Origin: a virus
Length of the DNA stretch: 6,045 bases
Direction: 5' to 3' (one strand)
IMG/VR virus record: IMGVR_UViG_3300020029_000274
Location: 1 to 6,045 of that record
The notes beneath the pieces were generated by a model. It made no database searches, was not told the DNA's origin, and worked only from the letters and a program-made list of their open reading frames with translations. Below, piece after piece: positions 1 to 6,045 of the stretch (position 1 is the stretch's first letter; each line of letters begins with the position of its first letter). A program made the position numbers and the translations under genes.

Positions 1-121
1 CATTAACCTTATGGCACTTGATTGGTTTCTTGAAGATACTCCCGCCTACGTTTCTCGCGGTCAGCGTATTCTTTCTGTTCTCGACGGTTCTGGCTCTGTT
101 GATGTTCTTCCTGGTCGTCCA
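1..121. repeat. Terminal direct repeat, copy 1 (identical to 5925..6045); circularisation overlap of a 5,924-nt circular genome
   Basis: Base-by-base reading shows that 1..121 (cattaaccttatggcacttgattgg...cttcctggtcgtcca) recurs without mismatch at 5925..6045, an offset of 5,924. The repeat starts 2 nt after the capsid stop codon and runs into the 5' part of the next ORF. That is the pattern of a circular contig written linearly, not of a biological terminal repeat. Confidence 0.9.
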
Positions 122-307
122 GATGTGGTAGTCGAACCTTCTGATTTTGATAAGGGTGAGAAGTTCAACCCCGAAATCGATTTCGATCCTAATTCGTTCT
201 CTCGTATGGATAAGTTCGATGGTCTCGAGGTTGGTCAGGAACTTATTGATTCAGAGATTGATAGATCGAGGGCTACCCCAAAGCCTTCTGATCCTAAAGA
301 AAAATAG
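11..307 (+). CDS. Small acidic protein (98 aa); possible internal scaffolding protein (VP3-like), function unproven
   Basis: ATG..TAG ORF with the same T-rich third-position codon usage as the hallmark genes (ggt tct ggc tct gtt gat gtt ctt cct ggt cgt). On the circle it starts 12 nt after the capsid stop. My hand count gives about 22 D/E versus 12 K/R, so it is strongly acidic, as microvirus scaffolding proteins are. I recognise no specific family motif. Confidence 0.75.
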   Translation: MALDWFLEDTPAYVSRGQRILSVLDGSGSVDVLPGRPDVVVEPSDFDKGEKFNPEIDFDPNSFSRMDKFDGLEVGQELIDSEIDRSRATPKPSDPKEK

Positions 308-337
308 TACATCCTTTACTTGACGATATATGCTACG

Positions 338-415
338 TGCGCGGACCCCTTCGGAAAGAGTCCGTGAATTGCCGAAGGTTATTGGTAACGACTGCCGGAG
401 AGGCCGCGCATTTTT
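338..415 (+). promoter_or_regulatory. GC-rich nested stem structure followed by a T5 run (candidate terminator or ssDNA origin/structural element)
   Basis: The outer helix pairs tgcgcgg (338..344) with ccgcgca (404..410), 7 bp. The nested inner helix pairs ccttcgg (348..354) with ccgaagg (372..378), 7 bp. An alternative, mutually exclusive helix pairs cggac (342..346) with gtccg (360..364). ttttt (411..415) follows immediately. The segment 331..410 is about 60% G+C by hand count, in an otherwise T-rich genome. Confidence 0.5.
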
Positions 416-440
416 CTATCGTTCTTTAAATTTTATTATC

Positions 441-632
441 ATGTCTGATACTAAACAACCGTTCTACAAGTCTAAAGCGTTTTGGACGCTTGTTTCTTCC
501 ATAGTTGCCGCTTTAGCTGCCTTTTTTCTTGCTTCGTGTTCTGCTCAGGCTAAGATGCATCGTAGTGGCGTTCATATCGATACCGTGCGTGTCGATTATA
601 TCATTCGTTCTAACAATTTAACCCATATGTAG
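441..632 (+). CDS. Predicted small lipoprotein (63-aa precursor, ~31-aa mature lipopeptide), unknown function
   Basis: From the ATG at 441 the product is MSDTKQPFYKSKAFWTLVSSIVAALAAFFLASC/SAQAKMHRSGVHIDTVRVDYIIRSNNLTHM. It has a Lys-containing n-region, a ~17-aa hydrophobic core and an L-A-S-C lipobox (nt 528..539, Cys33). The stop (630..632) lies 1 nt before the VP2 ATG (634). T-rich third-position bias resumes after 441, while 330..440 is GC-rich and structured. A signal peptide must be N-terminal, so 441 is preferred to the ATG at 330 used in the track. Confidence 0.7.
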   Translation: MSDTKQPFYKSKAFWTLVSSIVAALAAFFLASCSAQAKMHRSGVHIDTVRVDYIIRSNNLTHM

Positions 633-633
633 T

Positions 634-2010
634 ATGCCCGCTCCTGTTGCTGCCGCCGGTACCGCGGCTTCCTTTGGCCGTGCTCTCGGTGAATCTGTCG
701 CCTCCACTGGAGCCAACGGTCTCGTCAATGGCTTTTTGGGCCAGCTTTTTGGTGGCATGAACGCTCGTCGCCAGTGGCGTTTTCAGCAAAAACAGATGAA
801 GCTTCAACAGCAGTACGCGTTGGAGCAGATGCAAAAGCAATCTGAGCTTTCCTACGCTAATTGGCAAAGGCAGTTTGATTACGAGAATGCTTACAATGAT
901 CCTTCGAAGGTTTTCGATCGTTATTTGAAGGCAGGTGTTACCCCCGCTGCTGTGCTCGGCTCTTCTGGCGTTGGCGTAAATGCTACTATGTCAGGCGGCT
1001 CTGCGGGTATGCCCTACGCTTCCGGCCCTTCCGCCAGTGTTCCCCTTAGCCCCGGTTCTTTTGCCCCTGGAGATCCAACTGCTATTGCGCAGAATATGGT
1101 TGCGCAATCTACGGTTGATCGTAATTCTGCTGCTGCTAATCGTGATAATGCCGAAGCTAAGTCGATTACGGATCAGAATGTCGGCAATCAACTATACACT
1201 CTTATGGCCGAGACTCGCGTAGCTTTAGATCAGGAGATCGCTAAGCATAATTTAGCCGCCGCGGACGTTCTCAAGGTACAAGAGAGTATTGAAAAAAATG
1301 CGCTTTTTATTTCTGACGCTACTCTGTTGAGCTCTATTGATGAAAAAAAGAATCAAGCCGCTCTTGTTTCTGGAGAGGTTCGTCGTCTAAACATAGAGAA
1401 TGAGCACTTAGGTGCTGTCATGTCGGCGCAAGCTTTTATGATGAACACTCAGGCAGCTCTTAATCAGGTGCTTGGAGAGCAAGCTCGTGAGGTTATAGAG
1501 TCTTTGCGTCTAAACAATCTCGATACTGCTAATGAGCTTGTGCGCAATTGGGATAAACGCTTCGATGTTGATATCCCGAATCCTCAGTATTCGGAAAATC
1601 TTAGAAGCAATAATCCTATCGTTCGCGCAAATCCCGGCCCTCCGTCTTTCAAAGTTTCGATGTCTCTTAAGGATTTTTACGATAAGACTATTGTAAATGA
1701 AGCGAACGCTTCTGATTTTCTCCCTGAGCAGGCTCGCGTCGCTCTTCGTAATGCAAAGCTTGATCCGTATGTTGAAATTTCGAAGGCTCTCGTTGGTGCG
1801 GCCGCTAGTGTCGCTGGTGCAGGTATAATTCGTGGCGGCGTGTCGCGTGCGGCCACCTCTATTTCTGCCGGTGGATCTTCCAGCAACCTCGCAGGTTCTT
1901 CGATGACAACTCGTTATGATTCGAAAGGGCGCGTTGTTGGTTACGCGACAACAGAAATGAATCGTAGCGGTCATTCGAGTACATATAACAATACTCGTAG
2001 GTCTTGGTAA
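634..2010 (+). CDS. VP2: DNA pilot / minor capsid protein (VP2, phiX174 H analogue), 458 aa
   Basis: The N-terminus is Gly/Ala-rich and hydrophobic (MPAPVAAAGTAASFGRALGESVASTGANGLVNGFLGQLFGG). It is followed by a Q-rich segment and the block NWQRQFDYENAYNDPSKVFDRYLKAGVTPAAVLG (motif core nt 892..960). That block matches the conserved '...YN.P..Q..R...AG.NP' block I recall from microvirus VP2 proteins. The middle is long and helical or coiled-coil-like, and the C-terminus is Gly/Ala/Ser-rich (nt 1786..1884). Size and position, between the capsid and Rep genes, fit VP2. Confidence 0.85.
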   Translation: MPAPVAAAGTAASFGRALGESVASTGANGLVNGFLGQLFGGMNARRQWRFQQKQMKLQQQYALEQMQKQSELSYANWQRQFDYENAYNDPSKVFDRYLKAGVTPAAVLGSSGVGVNATMSGGSAGMPYASGPSASVPLSPGSFAPGDPTAIAQNMVAQSTVDRNSAAANRDNAEAKSITDQNVGNQLYTLMAETRVALDQEIAKHNLAAADVLKVQESIEKNALFISDATLLSSIDEKKNQAALVSGEVRRLNIENEHLGAVMSAQAFMMNTQAALNQVLGEQAREVIESLRLNNLDTANELVRNWDKRFDVDIPNPQYSENLRSNNPIVRANPGPPSFKVSMSLKDFYDKTIVNEANASDFLPEQARVALRNAKLDPYVEISKALVGAAASVAGAGIIRGGVSRAATSISAGGSSSNLAGSSMTTRYDSKGRVVGYATTEMNRSGHSSTYNNTRRSW

Positions 2011-2037
2011 AATTGTTATTTTTTTTTCTCTGTTTTT

Positions 2038-2068
2038 TTTGGATTTTCGATTTTTTGTTGTATATTTG
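2038..2068 (+). promoter_or_regulatory. Candidate Bacteroides-type promoter (-33 TTTG / -7 TAnnTTTG)
   Basis: TTTG at 2038..2041, a 19-nt spacer, then TATATTTG at 2061..2068, an exact match to TAnnTTTG. This sits in an 84-nt T-rich intergenic gap, 27 nt upstream of the ATG at 2095. Confidence 0.5.
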
Positions 2069-2094
2069 TATTGCAAACCAATAACCATATTACC

Positions 2095-2415
2095 ATGAGC
2101 ATTTTAAGTAAAGATTCTAGATTTGATGATCTGCAGATTGATTCTGTCGAGTACATGTTTATTGAATGGCTTATTCGTCGAGGGATTTATACTGCATATA
2201 AGTCGAATTACGAGCGTGCGTTTTCTCTTCGCACCGGCTTTCGTGAACGTTTGCGTGGCCATATTCGACGTACTCTTCGCTATCCCGATTATAGTCCAGG
2301 CGATCTCATCTCTTCTGCCTTCCTATTTGCTTCGACGCCCGAGGGTTTTAAATTTTGGAATAAGCACTCCACTGCTTGGAAACGTTTTTGTTCTAACTTT
2401 CAGTTGAAATTTTAA
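2095..2415 (+). CDS. Hypothetical protein (106 aa), lineage-specific accessory ORF
   Basis: ATG..TAA ORF with strong T3 codon bias (gat tct aga ttt gat gat ... cgt ttt tgt tct aac ttt). It is basic and aromatic-rich, with a C-terminal segment SAFLFASTPEGFKFWNKHSTAWKRF. I prefer the ATG at 2095 to the TTG at 2071 used in the track, because 2071 would fall immediately after the promoter-like -7 box. No family is recognised with certainty. Confidence 0.72.
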   Translation: MSILSKDSRFDDLQIDSVEYMFIEWLIRRGIYTAYKSNYERAFSLRTGFRERLRGHIRRTLRYPDYSPGDLISSAFLFASTPEGFKFWNKHSTAWKRFCSNFQLKF

Positions 2416-2426
2416 ATTGTATTATT

Positions 2427-2750
2427 ATGTCACAGGTTCACATTGTTATTCGTCGGATTAATCCGGCTTTGAAAATTGATCTCGCCCAGGTAGGTCGCCT
2501 CGAGGAAGGTCGATTTGAATCAGTTCCCTTGGAGGTTCTTGCAAATTCCGCTATTTCGAGTATCTTAAAGCGTTCTGAAATTAGCGATTCGCTTTATGTT
2601 GATCATTCAAGTATACCTAAACTTATTGCTATTTGTGAGGGTTTTCCTGATTTTCGTGTCGAGTTTTTCGACAATACACTTGTCCTTATGTTTTACCGTG
2701 ATCTAGATCGTAATGAAAGCGCGACGAAAGAAGAAGGGGAAGGGCACTAG
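2427..2750 (+). CDS. Hypothetical protein (107 aa) with an acidic C-terminal tail, lineage-specific accessory ORF
   Basis: ATG..TAG ORF starting 11 nt after the previous stop, in the same orientation and with the same codon style. No transmembrane segment or signal peptide is visible. It ends in ...DLDRNESATKEEGEGH. No family is recognised. Confidence 0.72.
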   Translation: MSQVHIVIRRINPALKIDLAQVGRLEEGRFESVPLEVLANSAISSILKRSEISDSLYVDHSSIPKLIAICEGFPDFRVEFFDNTLVLMFYRDLDRNESATKEEGEGH

Positions 2751-2797
2751 AGTAGTGACCCGCCCGCTTGGTGGAAGAGTTCTTTAACTCGTAGTAT

Positions 2798-2820
2798 CTG
2801 TGGGAGGCCTCCTCTCACAG
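2798..2820 (+). promoter_or_regulatory. GC-rich stem-loop (10-bp stem including one G-T pair, 3-nt loop); candidate terminator or ssDNA origin element
   Basis: In ctgtgggagg-cct-cctctcacag, positions 2798..2807 pair with 2811..2820 (c-g, t-a, g-c, t-a, g-c, g-t, g-c, a-t, g-c, g-c) and the loop is 2808..2810. It lies 48 nt after the stop of the 107-aa ORF, inside a 98-152 nt non-coding gap. Confidence 0.6.
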
Positions 2821-2831
2821 GTACTTTTACC

Positions 2832-2840
2832 TGATATAAT
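2832..2840 (+). promoter_or_regulatory. TGATATAAT box (extended -10-like; also resembles the phiX174 origin nick-site core)
   Basis: TG-a-TATAAT at 2832..2840, 12 nt after the hairpin. No good TTGACA sits at the expected -35 position (2812..2817 is ctctca). The context cctgatataatttttt shares TGATAT..AAT with the phiX174 origin core CTTGATATTAATAAC, as I recall that sequence. The function is undetermined. Confidence 0.35.
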
Positions 2841-2902
2841 TTTTTATTGTGGATAATTTTGATTTTAGGCCTAGGTTTTCTCCTAACGTTGGCGGCCTTT
2901 CT

Positions 2903-3049
2903 ATGCGTTATTCTATTGGCGCTTATCGCGGTAGGAAGCGAGTTATTATCGCTTGGTTTGCTGATGAGTTGTCCGCGAGCGATTATCTTGTTCGTTGTCG
3001 TCGCACTAATCCTTATATTCGATTTGATTGCCTTAAAAGCCTTTTTTAA
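2903..3049 (+). CDS. Small basic protein (48 aa from ATG 2903; 66 aa if GTG 2849 is used), translationally coupled to Rep; possible DNA-binding/packaging protein
   Basis: The frame has pronounced T3 bias (cgt tat tct att ggc gct tat cgc ggt ... ctt gtt cgt tgt cgt cgc act aat cct tat att). The product MRYSIGAYRGRKRVIIAWFADELSASDYLVRCRRTNPYIRFDCLKSLF has about 10 K/R and 4 D/E. Its stop TAA (3047..3049) overlaps the Rep ATG (3049..3051) as TAATG. The start codon is uncertain. Confidence 0.55.
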   Translation: MRYSIGAYRGRKRVIIAWFADELSASDYLVRCRRTNPYIRFDCLKSLF

Positions 3050-4119
3050 TGCCCTGTTCTTCTCCCATATGGATACGAAATCGTCGTTATTTCGATAAGA
3101 AAAACCCTTGTCGTAACGGTTCTGACGTTGCCAGGTCGGCTTTAGCCCTTCGTCCCTGGGATATCGCGCGACAGTGGTTGATGGTCCCGTGTGGAAAATG
3201 CGAAGATTGCTTGCGTCGCCAGCGTAATGATTGGTTTGTGCGTTTAGAGCGTGAGCTTGCTCATTGTAAGGCTAGTAATCAGCAGGCTATTTTTATTACT
3301 ATAACTATCGCTCCAAAGTATTATAATGAGGCATTGTTAAATCCTTCTTTATTTATTCGCCGATTTAATGAGCGTCTTCGTCATAAGCTTGGCCATTCTT
3401 TTAAGCACGCCTTTTTCCAGGAATTTGGCACTCACCCGCAAACGGGAGCCGAGCCTCGATTGCATTTTCACGGTTTTCTTTTTGCTACGAATACTCTCTA
3501 TAATACTATTCGCTCTGCGGTTCGGGACCTTGGTTTTGTTTGGCTAGCGAAAGCTACCCACAAACGCGCTCGTTACTGCGTTAAGTATGTCACTAAACAA
3601 ATTCAGTTCAATCCCGAAGAAATTTCGGGTAAATATGTTACCGTAAATGGAACAGTTACACCTTTATCTTGCCTCCTCCAACATCGCCGTTATACGCGAA
3701 AATTCGTATCTGCTGGCGTTGGTGATTTTCTTGGCTATATGCCTCGTCCTTCTACCCGTACTTCGTCGTGGTCTTATTTTGATTTTAAAAAACGAATCAA
3801 TTATAACTACTCGATTCCTCGCTATTACCTTAAATATCTTAAGCCAGAAGACGAGGTTGTGCGTTCGATTACCGCTGCTGATACTTATGCACGTTTTAGC
3901 AAGTCTTCTTTGGTTAAGCATATTGTGTCTTTGTGCATTAGACGGTTCGCCCTCAATTCCTCCGTATCCCGTAGAGAGACGTATACGTGGGAGCAGAAAC
4001 AAATGATGCGCTTTTCCGCTTCTTCTCGTAGGATGCCCGATTTTGATCCTCCCGCTTGGCTAGATTTAGATATTCTTCAGTTTTGGAAGAATCATTATAA
4101 ACTTCAACTAAATATTTAA
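3049..4119 (+). CDS. VP4: Rolling-circle replication initiation protein (HUH endonuclease; VP4, phiX174 A analogue), 356 aa
   Basis: All microvirus Rep landmarks are present. The N-terminus is MPCSSPIWIRN. There is a VPCGKCEDC cysteine cluster (3190..3210). Motif I is FITITI (3292..3309). Motif II, the HUH motif, is LHFHGFLF (HFH at 3463..3471). Motif III is YCVKYVTK (3574..3597), with two catalytic-type tyrosines in the Y-x-x-K-Y-x-x-K arrangement seen in phiX174 protein A. Confidence 0.93.
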   Translation: MPCSSPIWIRNRRYFDKKNPCRNGSDVARSALALRPWDIARQWLMVPCGKCEDCLRRQRNDWFVRLERELAHCKASNQQAIFITITIAPKYYNEALLNPSLFIRRFNERLRHKLGHSFKHAFFQEFGTHPQTGAEPRLHFHGFLFATNTLYNTIRSAVRDLGFVWLAKATHKRARYCVKYVTKQIQFNPEEISGKYVTVNGTVTPLSCLLQHRRYTRKFVSAGVGDFLGYMPRPSTRTSSWSYFDFKKRINYNYSIPRYYLKYLKPEDEVVRSITAADTYARFSKSSLVKHIVSLCIRRFALNSSVSRRETYTWEQKQMMRFSASSRRMPDFDPPAWLDLDILQFWKNHYKLQLNI

Positions 4120-4122
4120 TTT

Positions 4123-5922
4123 ATGGGAAAACAACCCTTTATTTCTCACGCTGTAAATGGTTACTCTCGGTACGATGTTCCCGAGAGTAAGGCCTTTACG
4201 TGTACACCGGGTATTTTGTATCCGGTGCGAATCGATTTTATTAATGCTCGCGACCGCGTATCTATCGAGCAAGGCGTTGATATTCGCAGTAACCCTCTTG
4301 CTGTTCCGACTTTCAATCCCTATACCATTCGACTTCATCGTTTTTGGGTGCCACTGCAGTTGTATCACCCTGAGTTGAGGACCAATAGTAGCAAGTTCGA
4401 TATGAATGATTTGAGCTTGAATTGGATTACAGCCCTTGTTGGCACTTCGGGTACCACTACTCCTAATTCTGCCCTTGGTGCTTCGCGTGCTTATCCTAAT
4501 TCGCTTATGGCTTGGCTTCGTGTTTCCAATAAGACGTCGTTGCAACTTTCTAATCAGCCTCCGTATACCGCTAGTCTCCCCTCTGGTGCTTCGGTCAATC
4601 AGTGGGCAAATGCTGATACGTATTTAGCTTATTGGGACATTGTTCGAAACTATTATAGTTACTCGCAGTGGGGCTTATTTTCGATTGCGTGGCCCGCTTC
4701 CTGGTCGATTCTGGATAACTCCTTTTCTTATGCTACCGAAGCTACGTTTTTTAAGCAGGAGTATTCTAACCTAGAATTTCTTGACGCTTATTTTGAGAGT
4801 CAGTTTTACCCGTCGGCCGTTTCGAGTACAAATAATACTTTTAATAGGGGTAATTTGTTCTTCCAAATAATCAATTCTCAACTCCCGTCGGGCGGCGACC
4901 AAGATGGCTACCCTGTTTCTACCACACTTCCCAGTGGCGCCAATATCGTTGTCGGAAAAGGTCCCTCTGGTCAATTTTCTACCTCTGAAGGCACCGCCTC
5001 TGTTTCTGCTATTTCTGCCTTCTTGTTTGCGCATCCTATGGCTGTTGTACCCTCGAACCCTGATCGATTTAGCCGGCTTATTCCCGTAGGTTCTTCGTCT
5101 GCGGTCTCTATGACCGGCGTAAGCACTATTCCGCAGTTGGCCATTGCTTCTCGCCTTCAGGAATACAAAGACCTTCTCGGTGCTGGAGGCAGCCGTTATA
5201 GCGATTGGTTGGAAACGTTTTTTGCGTCGAAGATTGAACATGTTGACCGTCCGAAGCTCCTTTTTAGTGCTTCGCAGACCGTCAATGTGCAGATTGTTAT
5301 GAATCAAGCCGGCCAAAATAATTTTGCCAACCAGGGCGTTAATGGTCCTCTAGGTCAACAAGGTGGTGCCATTGCTTTCAATGATCGCCTTGGTCGTCGG
5401 CAGTCTTACTATTTCCGTGAACCTGGTTATTTAATCGATATGCTGAGTATTCGCCCTGTTTACTTTTGGAGCGGTATTACACCCGATTATCTGAATTATC
5501 AAGGCTCGGATTACTTCAATCCTATTTACAACGATATTGGTTATCAGGATGTTCCTGCCGCACGGCTTTTTAGTAATGCTGCGGGTTCGGATCTTGGACT
5601 TGCTGTTGCTTACGAGCCTTGTTTTAACGAGTTTCGTTCGTCTTATGATGAAGCATTAGGCTCGTTGTCGTCGTACCCCGCTCCTTCATTAGGCATCCCC
5701 AGGCCTATTTATTCGTATTGGGTGCAGCAGCGCTCGCTTGGTTTTTCGTATGTAGGCTCTGCCGGCGCTAATTATTATCCCGCACTTTTCGTGGATATGG
5801 CGCAGGTTAATGCTCCTTTTGCCTCTAATGTAGAGGATAATTTTTTTGTAAATATGTCTTATTCAGTCCAGAAGAAGAATTTGGTGAATAAAACCTTTGC
5901 TACTCGTTTGTCTAATCGTTAA
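4123..5922 (+). CDS. VP1: Major capsid protein (VP1, phiX174 F analogue), 599 aa
   Basis: The conserved Microviridae capsid blocks are readable. The N-terminal block is SRYDVPESKAFTCTPGILYPV...PLAVPTFNPYTIRLHRFWVPLQL (about nt 4162..4362). The central block is IPQLAIASRLQEYKDLLGAGGSRYSDWLETFFASKIEHVDRPKLLF (5128..5274; compare the LR.A..LQ.W.E...R.G.RY.E....FGV...D.R..RP pattern). Further blocks are FREPGYLIDMLSIRPVYFWSGI and DYFNPIYNDIGYQDV. It is the largest ORF and starts 3 nt after the Rep stop. Confidence 0.95.
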   Translation: MGKQPFISHAVNGYSRYDVPESKAFTCTPGILYPVRIDFINARDRVSIEQGVDIRSNPLAVPTFNPYTIRLHRFWVPLQLYHPELRTNSSKFDMNDLSLNWITALVGTSGTTTPNSALGASRAYPNSLMAWLRVSNKTSLQLSNQPPYTASLPSGASVNQWANADTYLAYWDIVRNYYSYSQWGLFSIAWPASWSILDNSFSYATEATFFKQEYSNLEFLDAYFESQFYPSAVSSTNNTFNRGNLFFQIINSQLPSGGDQDGYPVSTTLPSGANIVVGKGPSGQFSTSEGTASVSAISAFLFAHPMAVVPSNPDRFSRLIPVGSSSAVSMTGVSTIPQLAIASRLQEYKDLLGAGGSRYSDWLETFFASKIEHVDRPKLLFSASQTVNVQIVMNQAGQNNFANQGVNGPLGQQGGAIAFNDRLGRRQSYYFREPGYLIDMLSIRPVYFWSGITPDYLNYQGSDYFNPIYNDIGYQDVPAARLFSNAAGSDLGLAVAYEPCFNEFRSSYDEALGSLSSYPAPSLGIPRPIYSYWVQQRSLGFSYVGSAGANYYPALFVDMAQVNAPFASNVEDNFFVNMSYSVQKKNLVNKTFATRLSNR

Positions 5923-5924
5923 TA

Positions 5925-6045
5925 CATTAACCTTATGGCACTTGATTGGTTTCTTGAAGATACTCCCGCCTACGTTTCTCGCGGTCAGCGTATTCTTTCT
6001 GTTCTCGACGGTTCTGGCTCTGTTGATGTTCTTCCTGGTCGTCCA
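5925..6045. repeat. Terminal direct repeat, copy 2 (identical to 1..121)
   Basis: Exact 121-nt copy of the window start; see the feature at 1..121. Confidence 0.9.
5935..6045 (+). CDS. Duplicate 5' fragment (first 37 codons, runs off the window) of the 98-aa acidic protein gene, created by the circular overlap
   Basis: The ATG at 5935 corresponds to the ATG at 11 and the sequence is identical to 11..121. It is the same gene seen a second time, not an additional gene. Confidence 0.6.
   Translation, partial: MALDWFLEDTPAYVSRGQRILSVLDGSGSVDVLPGRP

Follow-up and report, generated by a model that had tools for sequence, protein, structure and literature searches.

The stretch of DNA considered here, IMG/VR virus record IMGVR_UViG_3300020029_000274 (positions 1 to 6,045; the window, 6045 nucleotides (nt) in length), holds a complete microvirus genome. 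Once the terminal assembly overlap of 121 nt is discounted, the genome is a circle of 5924 nt, and every gene is encoded on the + strand. Two adjacent open reading frames (ORFs) in the same orientation, ORF1 and ORF2, are located between the genes of the DNA pilot protein VP2 and the replication initiator VP4 (Rep). ORF1 (2095-2415, + strand) extends from an ATG at 2095 to a TAA ending at 2415 and encodes a basic protein of 106 amino acids (aa) with an isoelectric point (pI) of 9.9 and five predicted helices. After a spacer of 11 nt, ORF2 (2427-2750, + strand) extends from an ATG at 2427 to a TAG ending at 2750 and encodes 107 aa (pI 5.0) with a predicted alpha/beta fold and an acidic, disordered tail. 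The two genes are preceded by a promoter candidate and followed by a near-invariant 28-nt block and a GC-rich hairpin. A first-pass annotation had placed the frames at exactly these coordinates, had pointed out their contrasting charges and their share of about 11% of the coding capacity (10.9% of the 5924-nt circle), and had described them as a two-gene accessory cassette. The comparisons presented below favor a different reading, to which a probability of about 0.55 is assigned: ORF1 and ORF2, both of them real genes, would be co-expressed, differ in their evolutionary standing, and probably do different jobs.

Evolutionary Standing of ORF1 and ORF2

That both ORFs are genuine genes is borne out by conserved homologs in GenBank, in protein clusters, and in IMG/VR. 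The close relatives comprise 22 protein clusters for ORF1 and 163 for ORF2, nearly all of 101-108 aa and encoded on contigs of up to ~6 kb, with a few of ~12 kb, and homologs of the two genes adjoin each other in GenBank microviruses of fecal origin (pigs, rodents, lemurs, tortoises, and other animals). The median pairwise ratio of nonsynonymous to synonymous substitution rates (dN/dS) is 0.33 for ORF1 and 0.27 for ORF2, as compared with 0.28 for VP2 and 0.09 for VP1, VP4, and orfA, and both genes evolve under purifying selection.

Presence and absence were scored in 12 fetched GenBank relatives with a capsid protein VP1 at least 57% identical. ORF1 is present in six of them and absent from the other six. 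Five ORF1-less genomes (L089, L093, L095, L097, and L098) show a gap of only 40-90 nt between VP2 and ORF2, and in the sixth (L096) an unrelated 83-aa ORF fills the slot. On the VP1 and VP4 trees, the presence of ORF1 is scattered. Since it is missing from half of the relatives, ORF1 is, on this sampling, a dispensable, accessory gene. ORF2, searched with an iterated hidden Markov model (HMM), was found in 12/12 relatives, always before orfC-VP4, and directly after VP2 in the six ORF1-less genomes or after ORF1 elsewhere. The order VP4-VP1-orfA-orfB-VP2-ORF1-ORF2-orfC is maintained in 80/80 IMG/VR genomes (selected by ORF2). The notion of an accessory cassette thus holds for ORF1 and fails for ORF2, so that the two do not constitute one cassette. 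The same distribution weakens the proposal that the basic and the acidic protein are partners: as ORF2 is present in six ORF1-less relatives, it does not need ORF1, and an obligate ORF1-ORF2 complex appears unlikely. The host-interaction role suggested for the pair is plausible for ORF1 only.

ORF2, a Core Gene of the Lineage

The AlphaFold2 model of ORF2 (121 sequences; mean confidence, pLDDT, 86.5) shows a compact alpha/beta protein whose N-terminal part forms a long beta-hairpin and whose conserved charged C-terminal tail (residues 97-107) is disordered, consistent with the acidic tail noted before. Foldseek comparison with BFVD recovered this fold only in other microvirus proteins (E 1.5e-13 to 7e-4, template modeling (TM) score 0.65-0.85), among them proteins of 127 aa (Microvirus mar42), 174 aa, and 101 aa. 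In two more distant genomes (L099 and L100), the ORF after VP2 ranked top in the ORF2 search, below significance; both of these ORFs end in an EKEED-type acidic tail like that of ORF2, and that of L100 also displays the DGQ hairpin motif. Judged from these data, ORF2 is a lineage-core gene, because it is found in 12/12 relatives, occupies the slot equivalent to VP3, and has its fold in distant microviruses. Across the clade, only R9, G23, G28, Q29, F30, and N83 reach a conservation of 90% or more; such few, non-catalytic-looking residues argue for a binding or structural protein rather than an enzyme.

Neither ORF2 nor ORF1 contains a transmembrane segment, in agreement with the first-pass annotation: the maximum of the Kyte-Doolittle 19-residue window is 0.84 for ORF2 and 0.55 for ORF1, vs 2.12 for orfB. 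ORF2 has no match in Pfam above the cut-off, in PHROGs, in NCBIfam, or among Protein Data Bank (PDB) sequences, and Foldseek vs the PDB returned nothing below E = 0.05, the best value, which was reached by GFRP (TM 0.34-0.38). Three candidate similarities were rejected. A match to HTH_25 (E = 0.008) lies below the Pfam cut-off, occurs in 13 of 121 family members, and covers a region modeled as a beta-hairpin plus short helices; the PDB sequence match 8fje 'E8' (E = 8e-5) is a de novo hallucinated repeat protein whose score sums four weak repeats; and the resemblance to GFRP in the structural search is not significant (E = 0.05-0.2, TM 0.33-0.45). A scan of 185,579 GTDB species genomes, limited to two peptide patterns, did not find ORF2 and provided no signal of lysogeny, one of the roles considered earlier.

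ORF1 and the TPEG-FW Domain Family

The AlphaFold2 model of ORF1 consists of five helices (pLDDT 82). An in-frame TTG at 2071, upstream of the ATG, is not used by homologs. The alignment of 22 orthologs revealed the invariant positions F76-x4-T81-P82-E83-G84-x2-F87-W88-x3-S92-x2-W95-x2-F98, and F22-x2-W25-L26 in the N-terminal helix; the core motif (residues 71-98) reads LISSAFLFASTPEGFKFWNKHSTAWKRF. An Arg-rich helix, FRERLRGHIRRTLR (residues 49-62), is found only in microviral copies. A pI above 8 is shown by 92% of the 49 microviral copies analyzed, and the median pI is 9.6 for microviral vs 5.5 for bacterial copies.

Searches with ORF1 gave no match in Pfam, NCBIfam, or PDB sequences, and none to a known microvirus protein in PHROGs. 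Residues 69-93, corresponding to the motif, weakly matched PHROG families 16354, 30073, and 10949 (E = 0.005-0.02). These families carry no annotation and probably belong to the same domain family; they differ in that the matches span the motif only, and the N-terminal extension and the basic helix are extra in the microviral copies. A profile search of 1.84 billion protein representatives yielded 100 relatives, with E-values down to 1e-15 beyond the microviral orthologs. Besides the microviral type of ~105 aa, they include many single-domain proteins of 65-100 aa and proteins with 3-11 repeats, none of which has a credible Pfam family. On this evidence, ORF1 is a member of an uncharacterized family of helical domains, here given the working name 'TPEG-FW', for which no Pfam, NCBIfam, or PADLOC model was found. 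The family signature, which ORF1 displays, encompasses an N-terminal helix F-x-x-(W/F)-L...N, followed by (A/S)-F-x-(W/F)-x-x-T-P-E-G-x-x-F-W-(7 residues)-W.

For DNA scans, a back-translated degenerate motif was used, and matches were checked with a broad profile (A3). In IMG/VR, 112 stretches were found, and 79 of the 80 loci fetched were verified; they reside on contigs of 4-401 kb, mostly of 18-401 kb with a few fragments of 4-12 kb. The small contigs L110, L139, and L175 were examined as candidate microviruses and turned out not to be microviruses. The scan of GTDB genomes gave 51 stretches, 49 of them verified, mostly in Tidjanibacter, Alistipes, other Rikenellaceae, and Bacteroidales metagenome-assembled genomes (MAGs) from herbivore guts, some on contigs of more than 100 kb. 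On large contigs, the family forms tandem arrays: 13 consecutive genes on a 266-kb contig (IMG/VR L115, 2956-6616), 8 genes on a 230-kb contig (IMG/VR L116, 1684-7565), and ~35-40 consecutive small ORFs, nearly all of them members, on ENA contig k141_1776293 (147.7 kb; L003/L004, 118841-135134). The latter array adjoins an N6/N4 DNA methyltransferase and a PARG-like gene. L006 and L007 are also listed among the array loci, and the array paralogs are 70-160 aa long and encoded on the same strand. Microviral ORF1 scores 32-41 bits against copies from double-stranded DNA (dsDNA) phages vs 22-27 bits against bacterial copies, and looks like a gene drawn from a pool common to dsDNA phages.

Among the fusion partners looked for, a single case was informative, a QueC-like C-terminus. 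It occurs in an 858-aa protein on a 90-kb contig (IMG/VR L182, 2962-5535), in which two TPEG-FW repeats are fused to a QueC-like domain (PF06508, E = 4e-13), and hints at a link to 7-deazaguanine DNA-modification pathways of some phages. Chromosomal members in Alistipes/Tidjanibacter MAGs (L250 6380-7348, L264 93-977, L223 790-1874, L239 3371-3718) are situated amid assorted small genes, among which are those of a ~300-aa protein, itself conserved and bearing an HD-like HDxxED motif, DUF3841, DSPc (dual-specificity phosphatase-like), and a HIRAN-domain protein; no obvious prophage genes were found within 8-kb windows around these loci.

An overprinted gene was also considered within ORF1, i.e. 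a hydrophobic 94-aa ORF in the +1 frame (2123-2407), recalling gene E within gene D of phiX174. Of 83 relatives, only 47% keep this frame open over 80 aa or more, and it is probably a by-product of codon usage and not a conserved gene. The antisense frame of ORF1 is about as open.

Putative Transcription Signals and Other Elements Flanking the Pair

The candidate promoter at 2038-2068 (+ strand) consists of a -33 element TTTG (2038-2041), a 19-nt spacer, and a -7 element TATATTTG (2061-2068), and its end is 26 nt away from the ORF1 ATG. It fits the -33/-7 consensus of Bacteroides (sigma-AB-type) promoters from the literature on Bacteroides fragilis promoters. With the pattern TTTG-N19-21-TAnnTTTG, it is the sole full match in the genome. 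Since 24 of 200 shuffled genomes (12%) also gave at least one match somewhere, the consensus match alone counts for little. Of 89 relatives, 45 also carry the motif upstream of the first post-VP2 gene, 42 of them at a distance of exactly 26 nt from the ATG; in the remaining relatives, conservation of the motif columns amounts to 80-90%. A scan for sigma-70 promoters showed no enrichment (11 found vs 9.3 expected), and no Shine-Dalgarno sequence was found before any gene of the genome. The promoter type, this absence of Shine-Dalgarno sequences, and the fecal sources together suggest a host belonging to the Bacteroidota.

Downstream of ORF2, the hairpin (2793-2825, + strand) comprises 15 pairs and a 3-nt loop (z = -4.2) and is followed by a pyrimidine/T-rich stretch. 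Hairpins were searched separately in each genome, and the position is conserved in most relatives, 44-51 nt 3' of the ORF2 stop. Among 93 genomes, 67 distinct hairpin sequences occur with pairing kept, e.g. the stems CTGTGGGAGG/CCTCTCACAG, TCCCAGGGGA/TCCCCTGGGA, and CCCGGGAGAG/CTCTCCTGGG. In 55 hairpins the stem is perfect over 8 pairs or more, and 41 of these 55 carry at least five T in the next 10 nt. The T run of the window is short (TTTT, 3 nt past the stem), and several relatives show a classic run of T7-9. The hairpin is a candidate terminator or attenuator closing the ORF1-ORF2 unit; alternatively, it may act as a signal on single-stranded DNA (ssDNA). The earlier description of a promoter-like element, a strong downstream hairpin, and a single transcription unit between them is supported by the sequence, because both flanking elements are conserved.

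Between the ORF2 stop and the hairpin lies the 28-nt block ACCCGCCCGCTTGGTGGAAGAGTTCTTT (2758-2785, + strand). Not a single position differs in 24 relatives, whose ORF2 is mostly 52-62% identical to that of the window (96% in L010) and most of which have neighboring proteins with an identity of only about 55%. The block is probably a cis-acting DNA or RNA element, with an origin, a Rep recognition site, or a packaging signal as candidates. It holds a small CCGCC/GGTGG stem. An Rfam search gave no match.

Other Genes of the Genome

The conserved microvirus genes are VP2 (634-2010, + strand; phrog_8689, E = 1e-6), located upstream of ORF1, VP4 (3049-4119, + strand; PF23343, E = 3e-9; phrog_942, E = 2e-17), located downstream of ORF2, and the capsid gene VP1 (4123-5922, + strand). 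VP1 matches at E < 1e-20 were obtained in only 67 phage records, and the genome therefore represents a distinct lineage. Among 27 relatives, pairwise divergences of VP4, orfA, orfB, ORF2, and orfC co-vary (r = 0.58-0.79), and that of VP1 is poorly correlated with all other genes (r = 0.14-0.31); VP2 is less decoupled. This decoupling of VP1 and VP2 suggests that the capsid and pilot genes are often exchanged by recombination.

Three further small genes accompany them. The acidic 98-aa product of orfA (11-307, + strand), a gene located directly after VP1, is the best-conserved small protein, detectable in relatives with only 38% VP1 identity, and displays the invariant motif R-x-DKFD-x-x-E-x-G (R65, D67-D70, E73, G75); hhalign detected no homology between orfA and VP3. 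The conserved orfB (330-632, + strand), which precedes VP2, encodes a membrane or lipoprotein-like segment: its hydrophobic stretch ends in a lipobox-like L-A-S-C, and a faint match to a lipoprotein family was obtained. The product, possibly a small lipoprotein or membrane protein, is thereby a candidate lysis or exclusion factor. The conserved orfC (2849-3049, + strand) encodes a small basic protein (pI 10.0) and ends exactly at the Rep start codon; its real start may be an internal ATG (MRYSIG...).

Comparison With Known Microvirus Proteins

The first-pass annotation had recognized neither protein as a known microvirus protein, and this view holds: searches of Pfam, PHROGs, NCBIfam, PADLOC, and PDB were null, and hhalign probabilities for VP3 and VP5 stay below 1%. 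No confident homology to VP3 or VP5 came to light, and both ORFs are conserved. In position, ORF2 resembles the internal scaffold protein VP3 of gokushoviruses (PF09675; e.g. Chp2 and phiMH2K), as it occupies the same slot, immediately downstream of VP2 (in ORF1-less relatives) and followed by a small basic ORF and then by Rep. Because the gene order of Chp2 is VP1-VP2-VP3-ORF8-VP4-VP5, the ORF1-less relatives (VP2-ORF2-orfC-VP4) are collinear with VP2-VP3-VP8-VP4, and the GenBank relative MG945680 labels its ORF2 homolog 'similar to VP3'. The two proteins differ in size and structure, gokushovirus VP3 having ~150 aa vs the 107 aa of the compact alpha/beta protein ORF2, and share no sequence or profile similarity; ORF2 and 121 family members gave no match to PF09675 at E <= 1. 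The position of orfC equals that of gokushovirus ORF8/VP8, a DNA-binding peptide. J/VP8 proteins are Arg/Lys-rich peptides of 25-45 aa, essential and packaged with the DNA. ORF1 does not correspond to this description, being basic but 106 aa long, folded, and absent from 6/12 relatives; orfC fits it better in size, charge, and position.

Microviruses are described as largely isolated from the wider gene pool, and genes acquired from outside, namely methyltransferases, peptidases, and a ~200-aa protein common to dsDNA phages and bacteria, are rare (Kirchberger et al., 2022; PMC9239249). ORF1 is likewise optional, has low-identity kin in dsDNA phages and bacteria, and is inserted at a fixed point between conserved genes; it differs in belonging to another family without annotated function. 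In view of the reported genetic isolation, ORF1 would add to the exceptions. Small, non-essential microvirus genes directed at hosts or competitors have a precedent in gokushovirus prophages of enterobacteria, whose defensive genes in a hypervariable region are reported to confer superinfection exclusion (Kirchberger et al., 2021, as cited in PMC9239249). Those genes belong to prophages of Enterobacteriaceae and are unrelated in sequence, and the two-pattern scan found no prophage copies for the ORF2 lineage.

Interpretation

According to the favored reading, ORF1 and ORF2 would be transcribed together from the Bacteroidota-type promoter at 2038-2068, with the hairpin at 2793-2825 closing the unit. 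ORF2 would exert a stoichiometric binding role within the virus's own cycle. Procapsid assembly or ssDNA packaging, with ORF2 as a non-homologous functional counterpart of VP3-type proteins, is its most likely role, at odds falling just short of even. ORF1 is optional and inserted between VP2 and ORF2. Its small aromatic helical core is common to many dsDNA phages and Bacteroidales genomes, and the Arg-rich helix added in the microviral copies renders these basic; the gene would have been taken up from the pool of dsDNA-phage genes. That it is a captured, non-essential, host-directed binding protein serving takeover or counter-defense is put forward tentatively, with slightly less assurance than the role of ORF2. 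A wider proposal is distinctly speculative: represented by arrays of up to ~40 paralogs in phage-like genomes of 150-270 kb and by lone genes in Rikenellaceae and other Bacteroidales, TPEG-FW might be a large undescribed phage family acting as a diversifying binder to neutralize host defense or targets of takeover, of which the microvirus captured one copy and modified it by the Arg-rich helix.

Several points weigh against this interpretation. The hhalign comparison of ORF2 with VP3 (Chp2 and phiMH2K, a profile of two sequences) gave a probability of 0.2%, and that with VP5 of the same viruses 0.7%, based on a hairpin motif of 15 columns. As a folded alpha/beta protein, ORF2 differs from typical scaffolds, which are extended, and its rate of evolution, similar to that of the pilot protein VP2, also fits a host-facing role. 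The scaffold role may already be taken by orfA, which is better conserved than ORF2 and sits in the post-VP1 position, where a VP3-like scaffold has been predicted in Bacteroidetes microviruses (PMC3091885; PMC3394797). The 80 IMG/VR genomes (~6 kb) were picked by ORF2 and are hence uninformative on its prevalence. As to ORF1, the Foldseek search of the PDB, which includes solved anti-defense proteins, gave no match (best E 5.8), PADLOC yielded 0 matches for ORF1 as for ORF2, and the chromosomal neighbors of its family (DSPc, DUF3841, HIRAN) are uninformative. The direction of transfer, from the dsDNA-phage pool to the microvirus, is one that we infer from scores alone.

Other explanations can be set against the same data. 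The two genes could constitute one accessory, host-directed module for anti-defense, takeover, or carrier-state control, with the basic and the acidic protein acting as a complex. Their adjacency, the putative common promoter and terminator, the opposite charges in all family members, and a pace of evolution about three times that of VP1, VP4, and orfA are in line with such a module, and the pairwise divergence of ORF1 tracks that of ORF2 best (r = 0.75). This correlation is, however, confounded by physical linkage and expected from linkage alone. Moreover, ORF2 persists without ORF1 in half of the 12 relatives and its fold reaches more distant microviruses, ORF1 relatives of dsDNA phages and bacteria lack an adjoining ORF2, the ORF2 profile matched microvirus loci only, and the pattern-limited scan of species genomes did not find ORF2, all of which makes a single module improbable. 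That the two frames are open by chance or reflect annotation artefacts, as their small size and the lack of database names might imply, is effectively refuted by hundreds of conserved homologs, dN/dS values well below 1, pLDDT values of 82 and 86.5, and fixed synteny.

The remaining explanations concern the genes individually. ORF2 might be a lineage-wide, host-directed early protein, causing host shut-off, serving as a soluble lysis effector, or recruiting a host replication factor via its acidic tail. SSB-type proteins classically recruit other proteins through acidic C-terminal tails; ORF2 is, furthermore, the promoter-proximal conserved gene upstream of a putative terminator before Rep, it matches the host-contacting pilot protein in dN/dS, and a scaffold candidate already exists in orfA (PMC3091885). 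Speaking against it, ORF2 resembles no host-targeting protein, SSB, or OB fold, the structural search of the PDB having given nothing below E = 0.05, and its position beside the structural gene VP2 is strictly conserved and matches the gokushovirus VP3 slot. Such an early role is doubtful and comes second to assembly or packaging, which stays the most likely function of ORF2. ORF1, in turn, might be the virus's own nucleic-acid-binding protein, condensing the genome like J/VP8 or controlling transcripts or replication via its Arg-rich helix. The prevalence of basic microviral copies and the restriction of this helix to microviruses would suit such a function. Its dispensability in six close relatives, its folded 106 aa vs the short J/VP8 peptides, the suitability of orfC for the J/VP8 role, and the acidic nature of bacterial family members render it unlikely, and host-directed binding is preferred for ORF1.

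Concluding Remarks

Microviruses rank among the most abundant gut phages, and in most non-gokushovirus lineages only the capsid, the pilot protein, and Rep are understood. Splitting the pair into a core gene, ORF2, that occupies the VP3 slot without being related to VP3, and an imported gene, ORF1, indicates where the missing assembly or packaging functions may be sought. ORF1 offers a tractable case of gene flow between dsDNA phages and a 6-kb ssDNA phage, a process reported as rare. As TPEG-FW is a large, unannotated family that is strongly expanded in big phages, the microvirus with its single copy may be the simplest background in which to learn the role of the domain. If true, the capture of a TPEG-FW gene would provide a counter-example to the genetic isolation that has been reported for microviruses.

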